This document shows positions 2,072 to 28,787 of a stretch of 36,450 nt of DNA, piece after piece. A program made the translations under genes and the position numbers. The notes beneath the pieces are model-generated. The model searched no databases. It saw nothing but the letters and a program-made list of their open reading frames with translations, and was not told the origin of the DNA. The stretch is from Candidatus Omnitrophota bacterium (lineage in GTDB: Bacteria > Ratteibacteria > UBA8468 > B48-G9 > JAFGKM01), in NCBI GenBank assembly GCA_023819225.1, contig JAMWCZ010000003.1, forward strand, positions 1 through 36,450, in the 5' to 3' direction. Positions within the stretch are counted from its first letter, which is position 1. Every line of letters begins with the position of its first letter.

Positions 2072-2153
2072 GCCGGGATGGTGGAACTGGCAGACACGTA
2101 CGTTTGAGGGGCGTATGGCGTAAGCCGTGGGGGTTCAAATCCCCCTCCCGGCA
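2072..2153 (+). tRNA. tRNA-Leu (anticodon GAG), class II with long variable arm
   Basis: Cloverleaf folded by hand. Acceptor GCCGGGA/TCCCGGC; anticodon stem TACGT/GCGTA with loop TTGAGGG; variable arm GGC-GTAA-GCC; T arm GGGGG-TTCAAAT-CCCCC; discriminator A. No encoded CCA. Confidence 0.9.
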
Positions 2154-2202
2154 CTGCAATCTTCTTTGAAAAGGGATTTGAAGACACACGGCTGATAGGG
2201 GT

Positions 2203-2234
2203 TTGGGGGAAGGTATTTTCCCCCAAGCATTTTG
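2203..2234 (+). terminator. Intrinsic terminator after tRNA-Leu
   Basis: 9-bp stem TTGGGGGAA/TTCCCCCAA followed by GCATTTTG. Confidence 0.55.
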
Positions 2235-2238
2235 TATT

Positions 2239-2325
2239 GGGGGGAGGACTATATCAGGAAGGGGGAAACACCCCCTCCTGAGGAGCGAAGCGACGCCGTG
2301 GCGGGTTCAAATCCCCCTCCCGGCA
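2239..2325 (+). repeat. Conserved 55-nt module plus second copy of the tRNA-Leu 3' end
   Basis: 2239-2293 matches 12087-12142 with 2 substitutions and one G-run length difference. 2295-2325 repeats tRNA-Leu 2124-2153 (variable-arm 3' strand, T arm, acceptor 3' strand) with one extra base. Confidence 0.8.
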
Positions 2326-2624: not shown

Positions 2625-3155
2625 ATGAAAATCATTTTACAGAAATTTTTACTACTATTTACTGTTGTTTTTGTAGCAGGATGTTCTGTAAATCAGGGGG
2701 GGGCTTATTCACGTAAACTTATAAGAGAAGGGGATAGATATTTTTCTGAAGGAGAAATTGATAAGGCGATAGAGTTATGGCAACAGGCACTGGACTATCA
2801 ACAGAAACCGGAACTTTATGAAAAAATAGTAATGGCTTATATTATGAGAAACCAGCTTTCTGATGCAGAAGAATATATCTCAAAGGGTTTGACTTATTTT
2901 CCAAATAATGTTAATCTTTTTTTTAATCTGGCACTTATAAATTTTTACAATGATGACTTTGACAGAGCAAAGAAGAATGTTGATAGGGTGCTGGAAATAA
3001 ACGGATATTATCGTGATGCTCATTTTCTTAAAGGGTTGATGTATGAAAAGGAGGGAGATATTCCTGCTGCAAAAAGAGAGTTTGTTAATGAACTGAATGT
3101 CAATCCTGGTTCAAGAAGAGCATGGAAAAAATTAAGGGAGTTAAAGGATGAATAA
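2625..3155 (+). CDS. TPR-repeat lipoprotein
   Basis: Signal peptide with lipobox FVAGC after MKIILQKFLLLFTVV. TPR-like helical repeats (AIELWQQALDY, AEEYISKGLTYFP, AHFLKGLMYEKEG). The upstream ATG at 2580 is unlikely. Its stop overlaps the next start by 8 nt. Confidence 0.75.
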   Translation: MKIILQKFLLLFTVVFVAGCSVNQGGAYSRKLIREGDRYFSEGEIDKAIELWQQALDYQQKPELYEKIVMAYIMRNQLSDAEEYISKGLTYFPNNVNLFFNLALINFYNDDFDRAKKNVDRVLEINGYYRDAHFLKGLMYEKEGDIPAAKREFVNELNVNPGSRRAWKKLRELKDE

Positions 3156-6100
3156 AAAATTCTTTTATCTGCCTGCTATCCTCATCTTTTTCTTTCAATC
3201 TTTTTTATATTCTGAAGGGCTCAATGAATATATCAGATTTTTTTCTTCTTTTTCTTCCCGTATGCCAGGAACAGAAGGACACAGGTACTCAGCGGATTTT
3301 ATAGAGAAGAAATTCAAGGAAGCAGGGCTTAAAAAGGTAAAGAAGGAAGGATTTAAGTCGGTTATTCCTGTTGAAAGATATGCCTACATTATCGTTGATA
3401 ACAAAAGAATAGATATCCATTGTCTTTGGCCAAATCTTGTAAGAACATCCACAATTCCTCCAGAAGGACTCAAAGGGAAACTTATATATGGAGGCAATGG
3501 AGACCTGAGGAATTTAACAGGAAAAGATATAGAGGGAAACATTGTTGTTCTTGACTTTGATTCAGGGACAAGATGGCAGACGATTGCTATGCTGGGTGCA
3601 AAGGCGTTCATATTTACAGAAATAGGAGATATCACCCGTATTCAAGCAGAGCAAAAATTTGTAAATATCCCGGTTAATATTCCGAGGTTCTATGCTCATA
3701 ATAATAGCAAGATGATTATTGAATTTGCCAGGGAAGAAAAGGAAGTTAATCTATTCAGCAGGATGGATTGGGAGAATGTAACGGACTATAACATATATGG
3801 CTATCTTGAAGGGAGAGATAAGAAACTAAAAGAAGAAATTATTGTCCTGCAGGCATACTATGACAGTGTTAGTGTTGTTCCATCTATTGCCCCTGGGGCA
3901 TCTTCTGCCTGTGGTATATCAGCACTCCTTGATATCCTTGACTATTTTAGTATGAACCCGCCTGCCAGGACAGTGGTTTTCCTCGCTACCTCCTCACATT
4001 TTCAGACAATGAGAGGAATAAATGAGTTTATCCAGAAACACATGAGGAAGGAACCACTTTTTAGAAAGAGAATAAAGGAAGAGGATATTATCCAGCCAAA
4101 ACTTTTTATAGGGCTTGACCTGTCGGATGGTTCGGACAGTTTAGGTATCTGGCATAATTCTTATGACTTCTATACCCAGAGGGTCTTTGCGCCATATGGT
4201 AGAAAGTTTATGGAATATGCAGATAAAGTGAGTAGATATTTAGGGTATAAAAGAGAAGCAGCACTGGTAAACGGGATAAGCCCTGAAAGAGGAATTATAT
4301 GGCAGACATTTCTTCCTGAAAAGATACGAACAGATGGTGAATTAATAATTCTTTCAGGTAATCCAGCAATTTCTTTTGTGACTGTTAATGACGGCAGATG
4401 GCGTGTTGATACTCCTTCTGATACTTATGAAAATCTAAACATTGTCAATATAACAAAACAGGCGGTCTTTCTTAAAGAGATTCTCAAAGTCGCAATTAAT
4501 GACCCTGATTTATTCCCTGAGATTGAATTAGGATTAATAAAGGATAATCTTTATACCCTTAATTCAAAAATAGTAACATTTGACCCTACCAGAAGTTTTG
4601 TTCCGAGTGAGCCAGTGGTTGGTGCGCTGGTAATACCACGGGTACACCCTACCACTATAGTGCTGGGAAAAACATCTATGGGAGTTAGAAATACCCATAT
4701 AGGTATGACCGATGAAAAAGGAAAGGCAGTTTTTTCTTCACTCGGTCTAGCAAGCACCCTAACACTATCCGCTTTTTATATAGATGGAGATAGTGGAGAG
4801 ATTGTGCTTTCTCCTGACCTTGGAGTGGGCGGAGCTGGACAATATCCTGTTTTAGTACCAATGGACTATAGAGAAAAGGACTGGATGATAGTACTTTTTG
4901 AATCAAAGACCATCTCCCTTTCAGGACTTATAGACCCTCAGTATCTTGTTACACTGGATAAAGTAGAAGTGCTTGATATGGCAGATAGTGTCCCAAGTGA
5001 GTATGGATATTATCTGCAATACCCTGGATTTATCCCTTTTATGTGGACCTCCTATTCTGAGCCAATGGGATGTGTATTTGCAAGGGGACATATGAGAATT
5101 AAGATTCTCGGACAGGCAGGACCTCTCGGTAAGCGACTCCTTCTTTTAAATTCAAAGGAAGGGAGTAAAGAAACATCAGAAGGAATGGGATTTGAAGTGG
5201 AAGACACGCCTTTTATATATAATACACCATATCAATCAGCCAGGGATATGATAATTCTTGATGCATACAGAAGAGAAAACTTTGAGCAGTTCGGAATAAA
5301 AAACGAGCGTCTGGCAGAACTTCAAACTGAAGCAAAAAAATTACTGGCAATGGCAGAAGAGGCAAAGGACAAAAAAGATTGGTATGAGTTCTTAAAGTAT
5401 TCAAGGCAGTCACAAGCGATTGAATGCAGAGCTTATCCCGATGTAAAAAATACAGCCAATGATGTTGTAAAAGGTATTATATTCTACTTTATGTTACTTC
5501 TCCCATTTGCTTATTTTGGAGAACGGCTATTGTTCAATTTTGCAAAACTTGAAAAGAGAATTGCAGGGACTTTTGGCATCTTTATAGTTATCTACTGGGT
5601 TATGCGAATGGTACATCCTGCATTCAAACTAACAAATGCCCCTGAGGTAATACTACTTTCATTTATAGTTCTTGCTCTTTCTCTTATAGTGCTATCAATA
5701 GTTGCTTCAAAATTTGAAGAGCAGATGAAACATTTGAAAATGGAATCGTCCAGGGTATATGAAACCGATGTTGGAAGGATTACAGCAACAGCGACAGCGT
5801 TTTCTTTAGGTGTTGCAAATATGAAGAGAAGGCCTATCCGGACTATACTTACAGCCATTACATTAATCCTTCTGACATTTACAGTGCTTTCATTTACCTC
5901 TATCAAGTCATATATGAAATATAACCAGATTATAAGGCCATATAGACCTATATATCAGGGGATTTTACTCAGGGACCGTTCCTGGTCACCGCTAATGGAG
6001 ACCGCACTGGAATATACAGAAAATGAATTTTCAGGAAAAGGGATTATTACACCCAGAGCATGGTTTGTTCTTGATGAACTTGGATACAGAACAGCAGTTG

Positions 6101-7533
6101 AGATAAGGTGGAAGGATGATGCTACATTTGCCTCGGGTATATTAGGACTTTCTCCACAGGAGATTACCCCTGTCAGAAATGCTGTAGTAAATGGAGAGTG
6201 GTTCAGCGACCCGTATGAGAGGTCAGTTATCCTTTCAAAGAAGATGGTTAAGGAACTTCGTCTAACTGATTCAGATATCGGCAGTGCAAGGATATGGATA
6301 TATGGTAGAGAATTTATTTTTAAAGGTATTTTTGATGAAAAACTCCTCAATGATATCAAGGATATGGATGATGAACGGATTACCCCGGTCGATTTTTCAG
6401 TGCTGCCTGAAAGAGAGGTTTCAAAGATAAAAATGGAAAAGACAGCGCAGGTTTTTACATCACAGGCAAAATTAGAGTCATTTGTTCACACAGAAGCAGA
6501 AAATATTGCTATAGTTCCTTTCGGAACACTTATGAATATGAAGGGCACGCTTCAGTCAATAGCAGTTAAATTCAATGATGATGTTGATGGTAAAGGACTT
6601 GTTGAGAGTTTTATATCAAAACTCGCGGTTATCATTTTTGCAGGAATTGGAGAGAAGACATATGTTTATAGCAGTATGGGGCTCACCTCTTTCTCAGGTA
6701 TAAGTAACCTTGTTATTCCCATACTTATAGCTGCTCTAATAGTCCTTAATACTATGTTAGGGGCGGTTTATGAAAGGATAAGAGAGATAGGAACATATAG
6801 TGCTGTTGGACTTGCTCCAGTACATATCTCATCATTATTTCTTGCAGAATCAATGGTGTATGCGGTTATGGGGTCTGTTGCTGGCTATCTTTTAGGTCAG
6901 GTTGTTGCCAGAATTCTTATGGTAACGGGGTTGTTAAAAGGGCTGGTGCTTAACTATTCTTCACTTTCTGCTGTATTTGCAACCCTTATTATATTTATCA
7001 CAGTGATACTTTCAACACTTTATCCTGCGAGAAAAGCAGCCCAGATGGCTGTGCCGGATGTTACCAGAAAGTGGATACTGCCTGAACCCAAAGGAGATAA
7101 TTGGGAGTTTGAATTTCCTTTTACAGTGGCTGAAATTGAAGTCCTTGGACTTTCAACCTTTTTAACCGATTACTTTAATTCATATCAGGATGTCTCTTTA
7201 GGCAATTTCTATACAGGTGGTGCTACCCTTGAATATGAAAAACTTCCATCAGGTAAATATAAATATATTATAGATACAGATATCTGGCTGGCCCCTTTTG
7301 ATTTAGGAGTGAGTCAACACCTGAAACTTACAATGGAACCAATGGGGCAGTATGAGTTTTATACTATAAACCTTATTATGAAAAGGACAAGCGGAGAATC
7401 AACTGACTGGAAACGACTTAATAGAAGGTTCCTTGATGGTATAAGGAAGCAATTCCTTATCTGGAGGACTGTAAGCGGTGATGTTAAGAGGGACTATGCA
7501 AGACAGGGTAAGGAACTCCTGAAAATTACATAA
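3148..7533 (+). CDS. 1461-aa membrane fusion protein: signal peptide, M28/PA peptidase-like ectodomain with degenerate metal ligands, beta-rich segment, 3 TM helices, MacB/FtsX-type permease, and a C-terminal cytoplasmic domain of unknown type
   Basis: One uninterrupted ORF. M28-like motifs: AYYDS, PGASSACG, GNPAISF, DTPSDT. FtsX signature LNTMLGAVYERIREIGTYSAVGLAP with flanking TM helices. MacB-like TM1 is RTILTAITLILLTFTVLSF, followed by a ~270-aa extracytoplasmic domain. Confidence 0.7.
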   Translation: MNKKFFYLPAILIFFFQSFLYSEGLNEYIRFFSSFSSRMPGTEGHRYSADFIEKKFKEAGLKKVKKEGFKSVIPVERYAYIIVDNKRIDIHCLWPNLVRTSTIPPEGLKGKLIYGGNGDLRNLTGKDIEGNIVVLDFDSGTRWQTIAMLGAKAFIFTEIGDITRIQAEQKFVNIPVNIPRFYAHNNSKMIIEFAREEKEVNLFSRMDWENVTDYNIYGYLEGRDKKLKEEIIVLQAYYDSVSVVPSIAPGASSACGISALLDILDYFSMNPPARTVVFLATSSHFQTMRGINEFIQKHMRKEPLFRKRIKEEDIIQPKLFIGLDLSDGSDSLGIWHNSYDFYTQRVFAPYGRKFMEYADKVSRYLGYKREAALVNGISPERGIIWQTFLPEKIRTDGELIILSGNPAISFVTVNDGRWRVDTPSDTYENLNIVNITKQAVFLKEILKVAINDPDLFPEIELGLIKDNLYTLNSKIVTFDPTRSFVPSEPVVGALVIPRVHPTTIVLGKTSMGVRNTHIGMTDEKGKAVFSSLGLASTLTLSAFYIDGDSGEIVLSPDLGVGGAGQYPVLVPMDYREKDWMIVLFESKTISLSGLIDPQYLVTLDKVEVLDMADSVPSEYGYYLQYPGFIPFMWTSYSEPMGCVFARGHMRIKILGQAGPLGKRLLLLNSKEGSKETSEGMGFEVEDTPFIYNTPYQSARDMIILDAYRRENFEQFGIKNERLAELQTEAKKLLAMAEEAKDKKDWYEFLKYSRQSQAIECRAYPDVKNTANDVVKGIIFYFMLLLPFAYFGERLLFNFAKLEKRIAGTFGIFIVIYWVMRMVHPAFKLTNAPEVILLSFIVLALSLIVLSIVASKFEEQMKHLKMESSRVYETDVGRITATATAFSLGVANMKRRPIRTILTAITLILLTFTVLSFTSIKSYMKYNQIIRPYRPIYQGILLRDRSWSPLMETALEYTENEFSGKGIITPRAWFVLDELGYRTAVEIRWKDDATFASGILGLSPQEITPVRNAVVNGEWFSDPYERSVILSKKMVKELRLTDSDIGSARIWIYGREFIFKGIFDEKLLNDIKDMDDERITPVDFSVLPEREVSKIKMEKTAQVFTSQAKLESFVHTEAENIAIVPFGTLMNMKGTLQSIAVKFNDDVDGKGLVESFISKLAVIIFAGIGEKTYVYSSMGLTSFSGISNLVIPILIAALIVLNTMLGAVYERIREIGTYSAVGLAPVHISSLFLAESMVYAVMGSVAGYLLGQVVARILMVTGLLKGLVLNYSSLSAVFATLIIFITVILSTLYPARKAAQMAVPDVTRKWILPEPKGDNWEFEFPFTVAEIEVLGLSTFLTDYFNSYQDVSLGNFYTGGATLEYEKLPSGKYKYIIDTDIWLAPFDLGVSQHLKLTMEPMGQYEFYTINLIMKRTSGESTDWKRLNRRFLDGIRKQFLIWRTVSGDVKRDYARQGKELLKIT

Positions 7534-11623: not shown

Positions 11624-11979
11624 GGGGGCGATACAGGTCTCGACAGGAAGGAAGGAGGGGTAAGGTTGCCTGTAGAGTTTGTCGTGGACTCTTTAAAACA
11701 CGGCAAAAAATAACTGCCAATACGGCAAACGCTCTGGCTGCATAATTATGCAGTCACCTGTCTATAAAGGAGTTCCCTGCTCCTTATAGAACAGGTCGGC
11801 AAACAGGGAATTCTTTTCAGGGTTTATCTTTCTCCCTGGAAAGGATTAACAAAAAGGTTGCGGAAAATATGCGGTGTTCGGAGCCGTCTCTTTTCCTAAG
11901 ATAAAACTCCGGGCTACACAGGTAGATACCTTATCACTACCCTTTCTGGACGCGGGGGCAGTACCCGCCGCCTCCACCA
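11624..11979 (+). ncRNA. ssrA: tmRNA (SsrA)
   Basis: 5' GGGGGCGATACAGGTCTCGACAGG. 3' tRNA-like end GGACGCGGGGGCAGTACCCGCCGCCTCCACCA with a G3:U70 pair. Tag reading frame 11716-11745 encodes ANTANALAA then stop. Confidence 0.9.
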
Positions 11980-12051
11980 AGGTTATAAAAGTTAAGTTTG
12001 CTTGACAATTTTGACAGTTTAGAAGTCCTCCCCGCGGACAGCAAAGGGGTG

Positions 12052-12080
12052 CAGGGGAAAGGACTGTCCCCTGCGTTTTT
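12052..12080 (+). terminator. Intrinsic terminator after tmRNA
   Basis: 7-bp stem CAGGGGA/TCCCCTG followed by CGTTTTT. Confidence 0.55.
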
Positions 12081-12086
12081 CGCTGT

Positions 12087-12174
12087 GGGGGGGAGGACTA
12101 TATCAGGAAGGGGGAAGCACCCCCTCCTGAAGAGCGAAGCGAGGACGCGGGGGCAGTACCCGCCGCCTCCACCA
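12087..12174 (+). repeat. Conserved 56-nt module plus exact second copy of the tmRNA 3' end
   Basis: 12087-12142 matches 2239-2293. 12143-12174 is identical (32/32) to tmRNA 11948-11979, including the CCA. Confidence 0.85.
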
Positions 12175-14786: not shown

Positions 14787-14985
14787 TGTAGCGGTGTGAC
14801 CCGTCACTAAAGATTTGGCGGGCAGGACTGTGAGAAGGAAGAAAGGCGTGAGATATGAGAAATTTCCTCCCCCTCACCCTACCCTCTCCCCGCTGGGGAG
14901 AGGGTAGAAAAGGGGGGGAGAAGAGAGAAAGGCGTGAGATGTAAGAAGGGCGAGGGGAATTTGTGATATAAATGCCACCGCTACA
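14787..14985. repeat. MITE-like 199-bp element bounded by 10-bp perfect terminal inverted repeats
   Basis: TGTAGCGGTG at 14787-14796 and CACCGCTACA at 14976-14985. Flanks end and begin with AATA. The interior carries REP unit 14882-14904 and an 82-bp segment repeated at 24894-24974. Confidence 0.4.
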
Positions 14986-19166: not shown

Positions 19167-19187
19167 TCTATGTTCTATCAACTTTAA

Positions 19188-19302
19188 CCCTCTCCCCATT
19201 AGGGAGAGGGTATGGGTGAGGGGATTCCCTCTCCCCCTGTGGGGAGAGGGTATGGGTGAGGGGTTTCCCTCTCCCCATCGGGGAGAGGGTATGGGTGAGG
19301 GG
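19188..19302 (+). repeat. Tandem array of 3 REP units (period ~39 nt)
   Basis: Units at 19188-19210, 19227-19250 and 19267-19289: CCCTCTCCCC-N3-4-GGGGAGAGGG. Each is followed by TATGGGTGAGGGG. Confidence 0.9.
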
Positions 19303-19467
19303 AGAGGGGTGCCGAGTAGAGGAATAAAGAGCCTCTACTGGCACGCCCGCCGAGTTGGTGAGGCGGGTGACCGAAGCCCGTAAGGGCAAGAAGGGTGAGG
19401 GGAGAGTTAGGGTATTTTTGAACAAAAAATTAGAGGAAAAGGTTTTACCCATGTACCCTATCTGTAC
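19297..19467 (+). repeat. Conserved structured element, copy 1 (inverted partner at 28170-28340)
   Basis: 19297-19434 is 138/138 identical to the reverse complement of 28203-28340. After ~20 divergent nt, the 14-nt motif TACCCTATCTGTAC (19454-19467) is again shared. Contains three hairpins. Confidence 0.9.
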
Positions 19468-24893: not shown

Positions 24894-24974
24894 CCCCCTC
24901 ACCCTACCCTCTCCCCGTTGGGGAGAGGGAAGAAAAGGGGGGAGAAGAGAGAAAGGCGTGAGATGTAAGAAGGG
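24894..24974 (+). repeat. 81-bp direct repeat of 14869-14950, containing REP unit 24907-24929
   Basis: Differs from 14869-14950 by 2 substitutions and one G-run length. The motif GGGGGGAGGATATAG at 24838-24852, upstream of this repeat, resembles the 5' end of the tRNA/tmRNA-associated module. Confidence 0.85.
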
Positions 24975-25047
24975 AGAAAATCCTCCCCCTCGGAGGGGGA
25001 AAGATATAGGAAGAGGAATGAAAGGGAGAGAATAGTCAAAGGGAGAA

Positions 25048-26135: not shown

Positions 26136-26202
26136 CCTATTCTTCCCTTTCCCTATCCCTGTTTGTCCACCTCGCCTTTCTCTCTTCCCTACACCTTTTA
26201 TT

Positions 26203-26274
26203 CCCTCTCCCCATCGGGGAGAGGGCAGGGGTGAGGGGCATCCTTTCTTTTCACTCTCCACTGTGGGGAGAGGG
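26203..26274. repeat. Two REP units between pilin-cluster genes
   Basis: CCCTCTCCCCATCGGGGAGAGGG at 26203-26225 plus a degenerate unit at 26252-26274, each followed by CAGGGGTGAGGGG. Confidence 0.8.
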
Positions 26275-26293
26275 CAGGGGTGAGGGGCCCTCC

Positions 26294-28120
26294 TTACCAC
26301 TTTATCTGCCAACTACCAGGGACAGGAACATACCTCCTTCTGCCCCAGAAAAACCCTTTATATACCCTTGAGTTTTTCATATACGGTTCAGGGTCATAGA
26401 TGATAGAGGTATTTCTGCCTATTTGTAATGTATCTCCTGCAACAAGAATACCTGTAATGGTCTGAGTATTATCATTCAAGGTTATATTCCTGTATGAGTA
26501 GATGCTTCCCCTGATATTAAAATTATTGGCATTTATGTTTACATTTGCACTATTACTATAATTCACAATTGCAAACTGAAAAGGCGGGTCAAAAGGATAA
26601 TTTATTGTAAAAGGACTTCCTATAGTTATAGTTCCGGTTGAAGCAACTACCGCAATCCCCGCCCTCTGGTTTTCCCCAAGGGTAATAGTTGGAGAACTAG
26701 ATATATTTATCGTTCCGGCACTCCCTGAAGAACTGTTGTGTATATATACGACAGCATCATAGTCAGAGTTTGTTGCGTCTATCGTCCCACCTGAGATATT
26801 AATTGTATGTGCTACAGAAGATGTATTATAACAGACACTGCTTCCATTTATAGTCCCTCCACTTACTGTAATATCCTCATTTGAAAGGACATTTCCATTT
26901 ATTGTCCCGCCACTTAATGTAATATCTCCGGTTGCAAAGACATCTCCACTGATTGTTCCTCCACTGATTGTAATAGCCCTACTTGAAAGTACATCCCCCC
27001 CTATATTCCCACTATTTACTGTAATATCCTGGTCACATTTTACCTTTCCAGTGATATTATTACTTAGTATTAGTGCCCCCCCTTTAACAACAAGGTCTCC
27101 GGTTATTGTGATTCCTGACGCTATGGTCAAAGAAGCACCTGTCATATCCAGACAGAGATTAGAATTTGTATTAGTGATTATATCTTTATTTATCGTCAAA
27201 TTCTTTGTTGCTGCTATTTTAAAATAATTGTCAATGGTAACATCACCCGCATTATTTGGAATTTGTGCATCTGCCTCAACAATAATTGTTCTGCCCCCTG
27301 AGTTAAAATCTTCTGGTAAGAGGTTAGAATTATCTCTTCCAAAAAGATATGTTGAGCCATTCCAGTAGATACCAGGGGCAGGGTCAGGGGTATCGTTGAC
27401 ACTAATACCTCCTGGATATGTCGCATTTATCAGCATACCTGTCTCAGTATATGTATCATCATATACACCTGGTGGAGAAGGGAGATTAAGGTCAACAGTA
27501 AAAGAGGATGTAGAGGTTTCAAAATGAACTATATCAGATAAGGTAAAGGTTTCTGTCCATGTGGCTTCTGTCAGTCCAGATGGTTTATTTGTAATAGTTT
27601 CGCTCATTACATTACCTTTAATAGATACATTTGATGGCGGAGTGCCGCTAAAATTCAGATTTTTTGCATATATTGTATGTTTATTAAATGCTTCAGGAAT
27701 ACCACTATAGGCAGATTTAAGGTTATCTCCTGTATGTGCATATCCTTTAACATTTACTGACACCTCTGCTGTTCTTCCTCTGTATGTTCCAGTTGAAACA
27801 ATCTTTGTCTCACAGGATGTGTCTAACACTAATGTTGCTTTTGCCCCTGAAGGAAAACCAGGAAGCACTATATCTTCTGATGGGGTTGTAAAAGCAGGAT
27901 ACTGGCCTGTATCATACTGGCTATAATTCATCCGATAGAGTACTTCCTGTATCCCTGTCTGGGCTATCTGTAGGGCTATATTTTTGTCCTTGTAGAAGTG
28001 GGCTCTTCTTATTGCAGTTGTAGACGAGATAACTACAGCAATGATAAGGGCAGCAAAAATGATTATCATCACAAGCACCATTATCATTGCCACACCATCT
28101 CTACTGTTTTTGTTTTTCAT
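26294..28120 (-). CDS. 609-aa PilX-N-like pilus-associated protein with beta-helical repeat region
   Basis: ATG 28120 is preceded by GGAGGGAGG. The N-terminal hydrophobic helix VAMIMVLVMIIIFAALIIAVVISS followed by ALQIAQTGIQEVLYRM resembles PilX_N. Periodic ITxSGGTIxGDV repeats. The ORF-track extension to 28282 covers the repeat element. Confidence 0.7.
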   Translation of the reverse strand: MKNKNSRDGVAMIMVLVMIIIFAALIIAVVISSTTAIRRAHFYKDKNIALQIAQTGIQEVLYRMNYSQYDTGQYPAFTTPSEDIVLPGFPSGAKATLVLDTSCETKIVSTGTYRGRTAEVSVNVKGYAHTGDNLKSAYSGIPEAFNKHTIYAKNLNFSGTPPSNVSIKGNVMSETITNKPSGLTEATWTETFTLSDIVHFETSTSSFTVDLNLPSPPGVYDDTYTETGMLINATYPGGISVNDTPDPAPGIYWNGSTYLFGRDNSNLLPEDFNSGGRTIIVEADAQIPNNAGDVTIDNYFKIAATKNLTINKDIITNTNSNLCLDMTGASLTIASGITITGDLVVKGGALILSNNITGKVKCDQDITVNSGNIGGDVLSSRAITISGGTISGDVFATGDITLSGGTINGNVLSNEDITVSGGTINGSSVCYNTSSVAHTINISGGTIDATNSDYDAVVYIHNSSSGSAGTINISSSPTITLGENQRAGIAVVASTGTITIGSPFTINYPFDPPFQFAIVNYSNSANVNINANNFNIRGSIYSYRNITLNDNTQTITGILVAGDTLQIGRNTSIIYDPEPYMKNSRVYKGFFWGRRRYVPVPGSWQIKW

Positions 28121-28134
28121 CCTCCCTCCATAAT

Positions 28135-28163
28135 ATTTTACCATAAAAGTCATTTTAATGCAA
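28135..28163 (-). promoter_or_regulatory. Promoter of the pilX-like operon TTGCAT-17-TAAAAT
   Basis: On the minus strand, -35 at 28163-28158 is exactly 6 nt after the shared TACCCTATCTGTAC motif. -10 is at 28140-28135. Confidence 0.5.
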
Positions 28164-28169
28164 TATACT

Positions 28170-28340
28170 GTACAGATAGGGTATATAGTTAATACTTTCT
28201 TATCTAATTTTTTGTTCAAAAATACCCTAACTCTCCCCTCACCCTTCTTGCCCTTACGGGCTTCGGTCACCCGCCTCACCAACTCGGCGGGCGTGCCAGT
28301 AGAGGCTCTTTATTCCTCTACTCGGCACCCCTCTCCCCTC
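28170..28340 (-). repeat. Conserved structured element, copy 2 (inverted partner of 19297-19467)
   Basis: 28203-28340 is the exact reverse complement of 19297-19434. The 14-nt motif is at 28170-28183. Confidence 0.9.
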
Positions 28341-28490
28341 TGGCAGGGGCGAGGGGCAAGAGAGGAGACCCCTCACCCTATCCCTCTCCCCGCTGTGCGG
28401 GGCGAGGGAAGCCCCTCACCCTATCCCTCTCCCCTCTGACAGGGGCGAGGGAATCCCCTCACCCATACCCTCTCCCCGATGGGGAGAGGG
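28328..28490 (-). repeat. Array of 4 REP units
   Basis: Units at 28328-28355, 28382-28408, 28425-28451 and 28468-28490, separated by CCCCTCACCC-type linkers. Same relative order and orientation to the 138-bp element as array 19188-19302. Confidence 0.85.
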
Positions 28491-28787
28491 AAAAAGAGAG
28501 GGGGATAGTGTGGGAAGAGAGAATAAAAGGTGAGGGAAAAGGTAAGATTCTTAAATTCCTCCCCATATGAAGGAGAATGATAAAGGTGAGGATGAAGGGT
28601 AAGGGGCAGGGGGATAAATGCTACCGCACAGAATCTTCTAACTTTTCAAGTATATTGGGGGTATTACCTAAGGTGTCTTAAATTCTGCAAAATTTTAAGA
28701 GTTAAAACAGCATAAAAATTTTATCCTCTCATTATCATTCCTATACCAAAAAATATGGTATAATTTTGTATGGCAAGGAGGTGACTT

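Follow-up and report, generated by a model that had tools for sequence, protein, structure and literature searches.

The stretch of DNA treated here (the window) comprises 36,450 nt of contig JAMWCZ010000003.1 from a Candidatus Omnitrophota bacterium (assembly GCA_023819225.1); it contains, both on the + strand, a gene for tRNA-Leu(GAG) (2072–2153/4, identified by ARAGORN and scoring 48.6 bits with Rfam RF00005) and the gene for tmRNA (11624–11979; Rfam RF00023, 161 bits), each of which is followed by a small element ending in a second copy of the 3′ end of the gene. The last 30 nt of tRNA-Leu (2124–2153) are present again at 2295–2325 with one base added in the 5′ strand of the T-stem (GTGG[C]GGG; repeat family D19), and the likeness of this repeat runs 6 nt beyond the gene end, up to 2331; the 3′-terminal 32 nt of tmRNA (11948–11979) are duplicated exactly (32/32) at 12143–12174 (repeat family D15). 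The copies are 141 bp apart in the case of tRNA-Leu and 163 bp in that of tmRNA, and repeat analysis thus bears out the first-pass annotation, which had described both duplications.

The two loci share one order of parts: the 3′ end of the gene itself (T3′-1), a spacer (S), an antisense segment (A), a lead of the form AAAGGG(G), a hairpin (H), a T-rich linker (L), a 55-nt module (M), and the second gene end (T3′-2). Behind tRNA-Leu, S (ctgcaatcttctttgaaaa, 2154–2172) includes the tTCTTTGAaaa motif which recurs in the family; A (gggatttgaaGACAcacggc, 2173–2192), overlooked by the first-pass annotation, is a 20-nt segment antisense to 2124–2143, that is, to the end of the variable arm, the 5′ strand of the T-stem and the T-loop, with a central mismatch bubble of 4 nt. 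The lead (tgATAGGGG, 2193–2201), H (2201–2228) and L (2229–2238) are jointly terminator-like: a G+C-rich hairpin with a 12-pair stem is followed by a T-run (ATTTTGTATT) on the transcribed strand, in agreement with the terminator that had been placed between the tRNA-Leu copies. M (2239–2293) consists of a tract with a G-run and GGAGGA, a bulged hairpin at 2254–2281 (TCAGGA-A-GGGGG/AAACA/CCCCCTCCTGA), found just as it had been proposed, and the mini-hairpin motif GCGAAGC (2285–2291) inside GAGCGAAGCGA; the last part had been taken for a tandem AGCGA-AGCGA, the letters of which are indeed there, but GCGAAGC is the better reading.

At the tmRNA locus S occupies 11980–12029, and A (ccccgcgGAcag, 12030–12041) pairs with ctgGAcgcgggg of tmRNA, with a tandem GA/GA mismatch, and extends past the left, upstream edge of the repeat by 3 nt; there follow the lead (cAAAGGGG, 12042–12049), H (12050–12075), L (TTTTTCGCTGTG, 12076–12087), and M (12088–12142; repeat family D8) with its hairpin at 12103–12130 and GCGAAGC at 12134–12140. 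The two modules are 91% identical over 66 nt, where shuffled sequences lead to an expectation of 0 matches, and the covariance model described below detects both elements on the + strand, with 111 bits at 2193–2293 and 102.7 bits at 12041–12142. The like order of gene end, hairpin with a T-rich tail, module and duplicated end, which had been pointed out before, holds for both genes. It also holds that there is no integrase at either locus: the window encodes no integrase, transposase or reverse transcriptase, the neighbours being housekeeping genes, and between the copies there is no plausible coding gene, only short overlapping open reading frames (ORFs) in the six frames.

In either case the spare 3′ end restores the gene, which stays intact. 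We hold it for somewhat probable that both loci are small (~140–200 bp) noncoding and nonautonomous insertion cassettes specific to the 3′ part of tRNA and tmRNA genes, members of a family that has not been described previously, belongs to Omnitrophota-like bacteria and is found only at tRNA and tmRNA 3′ ends.

Occurrence at tRNA and tmRNA gene ends

Scanning one genome per species with an exact pattern returned 23 loci, all from metagenome-assembled genomes (MAGs) labelled Omnitrophota, Ratteibacteria, “Vermiphilus” or unclassified; such labels depend on the submitter, and therefore no claim of an occurrence across phyla is made. With a looser pattern, 54 metagenome loci and 0 in viral contigs were obtained, and neither viral contigs nor phage or plasmid records contain a match to the core. 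The sample consists of MAG and metagenome loci from incomplete genomes (L numbers designate fetched loci); as the loci were fetched via the module itself, the census tells where the module sits and not what share of genomes carries it.

All 90 exact-pattern matches of the module (77 distinct) lie downstream of a tRNA or tmRNA gene and on the gene's own strand, and behind almost every one stands a 16–32-nt copy of the 3′ end of an RNA gene, which belongs either to a class of ~16 nt starting from the T-loop or to one of 28–32 nt starting from the variable region. The hosts are about 20 tRNA species (Leu gag/taa/tag/cag/caa; Val cac/tac; Ala cgc/tgc; Thr cgt; Arg cct/tcg/gcg; Ser tga; Lys ctt; Gly tcc; Met cat) plus tmRNA. 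A covariance model (R1) built from 36 diverse members gave 111 matches in the 1.08 Mb of fetched MAG and metagenome loci; 88 of these have an annotated tRNA or tmRNA end at most 700 nt upstream, 12 are situated at contig edges, and the remaining 11 adjoin 3′ parts of tRNAs which ARAGORN had overlooked. No copy of the module away from tRNA or tmRNA 3′ ends was seen in this 1.08 Mb, and the question raised earlier, whether the module always abuts a duplicated tRNA or tmRNA end, can be answered broadly in the affirmative for the 90 exact-pattern and the 111 covariance-model matches recovered.

When Rfam 15 was searched at gathering and E-value thresholds, only tRNA, tmRNA, and rRNA reached threshold, with nothing credible over the element; there is no Rfam family for the element of the window, for the type B module introduced below, or for L040. 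In the literature, no description was found of gene-less cassettes of 140–200 bp, of one core serving ~20 genes, or of a built-in antisense address.

The antisense segment and the two hairpins

The 3′ end of A, a segment of 8–20 nt, is 1–4 nt away from the lead and the hairpin foot, and A covaries with its gene. The predicted pairing of A with the first part of its own repeat has a median energy of −19.4 kcal/mol, as opposed to −10.3 kcal/mol for noncognate combinations (Mann–Whitney p=5e-14), and compensatory changes in A and gene are apparent, for example, from Arg(cct) with gtcgccc/gggcgac versus Arg(tcg) with gttgccc/gggcaac; even a decayed unit which is no longer tRNA-like (L032/L040/L127) retains the pairing gttgtgag...ctcacaac. 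For 42 of 46 distinct units the intact gene context is a better pairing partner of A than the downstream copy is, and the opposite was never seen; the pairing with the intact gene takes in 2–5 nt of unique gene sequence beyond the left, upstream edge of the repeat, so that A is more than a mere inverted duplicate of the repeat. Going by the predicted duplexes, A reads the uninterrupted gene across the junction and may be viewed as an antisense “address” which matches its gene and could serve as a guide. Many A segments have a central mismatch, often GA opposite GA, and the differences between the gene copy and the downstream copy cluster opposite this bubble, in the 5′ strand of the T-stem and in the T-loop; among them is the extra base of the tRNA-Leu copy in the window, which is C, T or G depending on the lineage.

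H and M covary as hairpins. The stems of H contain 70 G·T versus 10 A·C pairs in 72 distinct variants, and folding favours the + strand over the − strand in 69 of 72 units; the G·T excess and the strand bias therefore speak for single-strand structures of + polarity (RNA or top-strand DNA), not for double-stranded palindromic binding sites. The covariation of the M hairpin extends across diverged tmRNA-linked relatives in other MAGs (L078, L086, L091, L093, L109, L132, L134, L138, L139, L145, L147, L148), which keep the order of A, AAAGGG, H, L, G-run, a bulged hairpin of 12–13 bp, GAGC-GNA/GNNA-GCGA and repeat while the stem sequences have changed. M of the window is identical at 55 of 56 positions to that of genomes with which the tmRNA shares 86–90% and the smpB region 79–83% identity; H differs there. 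This pattern is taken to indicate either strong constraint on M or continuing turnover, plus exchange of the core between loci.

At least five T within the 8 nt behind H are found in 54 of 78 distinct variants, so that the T-tract is not universal; H probably terminates transcription of the gene in most copies. No promoter was found inside S or L. In the M1 subtype, M ends with GCGNAGC or GCGNNAGC, N being variable. The GCGNAGC motif, known as “mini-hairpin DNA”, has a far higher stability in DNA than in RNA and occurs at ssiA, in the single-strand promoters of N4 and at the sites where single-strand priming takes place in G4-type phages (PMC13037366); by analogy, its presence at the end of M hints at a single-stranded DNA form of the cassette, which is a lead rather than proof.

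A further peculiarity concerns the G-runs. The length of the G-run in the AAAGGG(G) lead matches that of the G-run and the C-run of H, the combination being 3-3-3 in 15, 4-4-4 in 28 and 4-5-5 in 10 distinct variants (window 2196–2209 and 12043–12057; alignment A2, columns 1–35), and the purine arm of the M hairpin is likewise mirrored by a free G-run (GGGGGGAGGA) of the module. This matching could be due to a triplex, alternative pairing, a G-quadruplex, or shared ancestry; for a triplex or G-quadruplex, nothing was found beyond the correlation of G-run lengths. A possible third helix of L with the GGAGGAC tract was seen in single folds; it is unsupported where the tract is deleted (L045/L074). 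Inspection of M and A by eye for hammerhead, hairpin-ribozyme, HDV-like, k-turn, and box C/D structures yielded only incomplete core motifs, for example CUGAGGAG without the following GAAA.

Empty sites, arrays and nested units

The earlier proposal that relatives be searched for an empty site was borne out by L083, an orthologous tmRNA locus of a close relative which lacks the element. Compared to the window it shows a clean indel of 195 bp, spacer S included, with flanks ~92% identical; the DNA directly after its tmRNA is the native flank which in the window follows the second tmRNA copy. L083 stems from the same MAG as L004, L020, and L022, and the element is present at other tRNAs of that genome. 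Tandem and nested copies occur besides. In L022, tRNA-Leu(GAG) is followed by the element of the window and then by a different one (e2, with a 16-nt repeat) which is not in the window, and arrays of two to at least three units are found in L015, L029, L056, and L060. In L060 two kinds of element alternate and each keeps its own spacer; S is therefore part of the element, moving with it in tandem arrays.

Nesting involves a second, unrelated module (type B), which obeys the same antisense and repeat logic: it is inserted in the repeat copy of elements of the kind described so far (type A), and the reverse is found too (L006, L012, L018). Truncated units stop within the 5′ arm of H (L004, L015, L018, L029, L106, L113), with foreign DNA next to several of them, and types of H have been exchanged between loci, as the tmRNA element of L008/L069 has an H type otherwise seen at tRNA-Val. 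Larger elements bounded by S-A-H and L-M ends were not found among the 111 copies, which derive from incomplete genomes; a search for large inserts between the same kind of repeats gave only that of L043, which has different ends.

Several of these loci have features of their own. The type B module has the form GGAGCGAAGTAAGAAATTGCGACGGGTAGGAGTAATTTCAGCGG..GGCCGACCC..GTAGTGGGAGGCGAGGGCGCC and may include an internal domain made up of two hairpins whose loops are GACGAGUAAGGAG-like; it carries an antisense to the T-loop, then a 16-nt tRNA end beginning after TTC (L005 2040–2330; L006 2800–2920; L012 705–870; L018 7150–7330; L020 190–300). A genome scan for it with a 14-nt pattern was too unspecific, and loci from L149 onward are noise. 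In L113 (6525–7015), a small DUF559-like (Vsr-fold) gene between direct repeats (ATATCCCCCTTTTGAAAAGGGGGAATAAGGGGGATTTGTGAA) sits in the 5′ arm of H, right after the tmRNA-S-A part; this repeat also stands downstream of the truncated unit in L145. Chimeric units combine an upstream gene and A from one RNA gene (Val, Met, tmRNA) with a downstream repeat from another (tmRNA, Val, the decayed Leu-like unit), namely in L001 (6950–7200), L020 (1–260), L127 (2380–2700), L032 (200–430), and L040 (100–400); these may result either from recombination between cassettes at different genes or from joins made in assembly where the core is shared. In MAG JAQVEU01 (L005, L013, L016, L018), several cassette spacers are filled by a short repeat specific to this genome, AAAGGCAGTGATTAGTGA(C/T)CAGTGATTAGTA. 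The insert of L043 (380–4660) measures 4.2 kb, with tRNA-Leu(tag) and its mini-elements on one side and, on the other, the 3′ half of that gene, 51 nt from the anticodon loop to the end; its left boundary cuts hairpin H of a mini-element, its right end is also present in L060 (4650–4840), and it encodes an AAA ATPase of 386 aa with a C-terminal HTH, a resolvase-type HTH protein of 104 aa and ORFs without assignment, with no Pfam integrase.

Readings of the cassettes

Elements which insert into the 3′ ends of tRNA and tmRNA genes and bring along a replacement end are known already; that the present cassettes embody a new principle of targeting is put forward tentatively. Sublocation classes of tRNA and tmRNA integration by tyrosine integrases were reportedly set out by Williams in 2002. 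Like the islands and prophages at such genes, and like CIMEs, the cassettes lie between two gene 3′ ends with the gene restored; the repeat starts in the T-loop (16–17-nt class) or just upstream of the T-arm (28–32-nt class), there is tandem accretion at one site, and empty and filled alleles exist. Unlike islands, they are only 140–200 bp in size, gene-less and without an integrase inside, one core serves ~20 targets, there is a gene-specific antisense, and the covarying hairpins point to single-strand structure instead of double-stranded protein-binding arms; a parent element sharing the cassette ends, as expected for a CIME, was not found for the 111 copies from incomplete genomes. They also differ from MITEs, as their ends are not mutual inverted repeats (the only inverted pair being A and the sense segment of the gene) and as their flanking repeats are gene-derived and 16–32 nt or longer, not short target-site duplications of fixed length. 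With REP/BIME hairpin repeats and intrinsic terminators they share a small, structured, intergenic nature and the terminator-like H with its T-tract, but they are strictly confined to RNA-gene ends, the gene end is duplicated, and the antisense is gene-specific.

In layout the cassettes most closely resemble the ends of IS200/IS605 elements, and also the folded attachment sites of CTX phage (attP) and integrons (attC). The likeness to IS200/IS605 and PATE is one of layout only: there are two imperfect subterminal hairpins (H and M), the foot of a hairpin is directly preceded on its 5′ side by a guide-like segment complementary to the target or cleavage site of that strand, 5–14 nt separate the second hairpin from the right junction on its 3′ side, polarity is strand-specific, and small copies would be mobilised in trans. 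However, the putative guide is 8–20 nt long instead of 4–5 nt, the cassette has a 16–32-nt copy of the target, and no TnpA was found with approximate tblastn queries in 1 Mb of loci from incomplete genomes. As in CTX attP(+)/XerCD and attC/IntI, an inverted copy and a sense copy would form a duplex which mimics the target, with an unpaired central region and extra bases, the structure being kept while the sequence varies, and arrays of small promoterless cassettes accumulate at a fixed site with the enzyme presumably encoded elsewhere; but the target is the T-arm region of an RNA gene and not dif or attI, the flanking repeats are long, there are no ORFs, the pairs of A and T3′ follow tRNA sequence (e.g., GTTCAAA) and not RYYYAAC/GTTRRRY, and no recombinase is encoded in the window. 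The bridge (seek) RNAs of IS110/IS1111 likewise stand for nucleic-acid-programmed choice of target, with segments addressing both target strands, but an adjacent DEDD recombinase is lacking here, A is a contiguous antisense and not a pair of internal loops, the structure consists of A, two hairpins and a repeat, and the target-derived repeat is long and not a 2-bp core. The cassette departs from defining features of each family (long target copy, no core-site consensus, no transposase or integrase found) and is therefore filed in none of them.

The first-pass annotation had suggested either a miniature integrative element mobilised in trans or a functional element flanking the tRNA; the miniature element stands, whereas integrase-type integration specifically goes beyond the evidence. 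This reading needs three additions: the antisense guide segment, the covarying single-strand structure and the likely role of H as a terminator. Most likely, then, the target is recognised under guidance of nucleic acid and the cassette is moved by an enzyme acting in trans; we infer the guide role of A, the position of the crossover, the nature of the single strand as RNA or DNA, and the trans-acting enzyme. The cassette would work as a folded single strand of + polarity, in which A, just 5′ of the foot of H, would choose the target by pairing with the sense strand of the gene, still uninterrupted, over the site of the junction to be formed. Hairpins H and M would be the structure-specific handles for the enzyme supplied in trans, strand exchange might occur in or beside the unpaired bubble of the duplex between A and target, and the displaced gene end would be replaced by the 3′-end copy borne by the cassette; after insertion, H and the T-tract would probably become the transcription terminator of the gene. 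Taken to its full extent, the cassette would be a self-contained, nucleic-acid-programmed recombination substrate, with A as the guide, H and M as handles for a sequence-independent enzyme and a copy to repair the gene end, a possibility which we advance with reserve and consider rather less than even. If so, one trans-acting enzyme could serve ~20 essential RNA genes by changes of just A and T3′, which would amount to a new class of guided site-specific insertion, placed between the DNA guides of IS605, the folded sites of CTX and attC, and the bridge RNAs of IS110.

Several observations weigh against an insertion cassette moved in this way. The G·T pairs, which make up 10% of the pairs in H, and the T-tract suit an RNA terminator at least as well as single-stranded DNA, and there is a subtype of the module (M2) without the GCGNAGC motif. 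The reading gives no account of how a cassette would obtain an A suited to another target gene. In the loci analysed, which are module-selected and thus biased, 55 of 66 tRNAs are occupied, which is high for a purely selfish element, and the closest kin of an element is found at the same gene in other genomes, not at other genes within the genome; this fits an old, largely vertical inheritance with constraint, as an element useful to the host would show. Finally, tblastn with IS200/RAYT (TnpA) queries gave no match in ~1 Mb of loci, the queries being approximate and the loci coming from incomplete genomes.

The main rival is a functional 3′ trailer of the host, a structured RNA co-transcribed with the tRNA or tmRNA in which H is the terminator and A and M steer folding, processing or decay of the precursor; it would be kept by host selection and spread chiefly by descent, unequal crossing-over and gene conversion, with no dedicated machine for mobility. 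The terminator-like H in the window and in 54 of the 78 variants, the enrichment of G·U-type pairs on the transcribed strand, and an M better conserved than tmRNA or the smpB region are what such a trailer would show, as are locus-specific H and S common to orthologous loci and the high occupancy of tRNAs. It accounts less well for a site cleanly empty in a genome which has the element at other tRNAs (L083 vs. L004/L022), for the tRNA-Pro genes of the window and of L022, which have no such trailer in the same genomes, and for arrays of at least three units, nested unrelated modules with the same A and T3′ logic, and truncated and chimeric units, all of which resemble insertional activity. Moreover, A would compete with folding of the preceding tRNA, and if H terminates, the strongly conserved M and T3′-2 would stay untranscribed. 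We regard this explanation by itself as rather unlikely; it is compatible with the cassette reading, since an originally selfish cassette could have been recruited as a terminator.

Less probable still is that the elements are stand-alone guide RNAs of an RNA-guided protein (OMEGA/TnpB-, IscB-, IS110-bridge- or TIGR-like), in which A would be the guide and H-L-M the scaffold, a protein encoded elsewhere would bind or cut tRNA genes, and the cassette would spread by homing. The arrangement is suggestive, as an antisense of 8–20 nt stands directly 5′ of a highly conserved, structured scaffold of ~100 nt and reads the uninterrupted target across the junction, and as A and T3′-2 together address both strands of one site. 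However, neither the window nor the surroundings of the copies examined encode such a protein, whereas the known guides of these systems adjoin their protein gene; A is imperfect, often short and centrally mismatched, there is no Rfam or OMEGA-like match, and the resident copy of the gene would stay a target.

That the loci are decayed attachment sites (attL/attR) left by integrase-encoding prophages or genomic islands after deletion is very improbable: direct repeats of tRNA and tmRNA 3′ ends are the classic scar, and in L043 a 4.2-kb insert is flanked by tRNA-Leu(tag) and its 51-nt 3′ half, but there the sublocation is another one (the anticodon loop) and M is missing from the end of the insert, the phage and plasmid collections searched yielded nothing homologous, and one structured core of ~100 nt and constant size, with covarying hairpins and a near-invariant M, is shared by ~20 genes in many genomes, a pattern which random decay would not produce, as had been argued before. 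Two further origins of the second copy were rejected: a mature tRNA as template, in the manner of retroplasmids, as there is no CCA where the gene lacks CCA and the copy continues into the genomic flank, and DGR-like repeats, as the differences between copies are not adenine-specific.

Some other features of the window deserve mention. A REP-like repeat family (CCCCTCACCC...CCCTCTCCCC-loop-GGGGAGAGGG), separate from the cassettes and partly tandem with a period of ~40–43 nt, is present at 2330–2390, 14867–14953, 19175–19312, 24894–24977, 26190–26297, and 28235–28503, and in the window as well as in L022 one copy directly adjoins the second tRNA-Leu end on its downstream side. The window encodes no RAYT-type transposase, the usual companion of REP-like repeats. 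Inside a long ORF on the − strand (26294–28282) with a bactofilin-like domain there are four direct repeats with a period of 51 nt (26849–27030), which probably encode protein repeats of 17 residues. An ORF of 1461 aa (3148–7533) has a Peptidase_M28 region and an FtsX-like permease C-terminus, an unusually long fusion which is in line with the long proteins reported for Omnitrophota.

For practical purposes, the second copies are tRNA and tmRNA fragments which can mislead counts of tRNA genes and programs that search for islands, and the repeats resemble hot spots for rearrangement or for mis-assembly of MAGs. If the cassette reading is true, these would be the smallest site-specific “integrative” elements described, with a short antisense segment, and not a protein, specifying the target, and the acquisition of tRNA targets by integrative elements would become directly testable. 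For the organisms themselves, the elements probably provide the terminators of many tRNA genes in these genomes, and they would point to a structure-specific enzyme in Omnitrophota-like bacteria which may be programmable.

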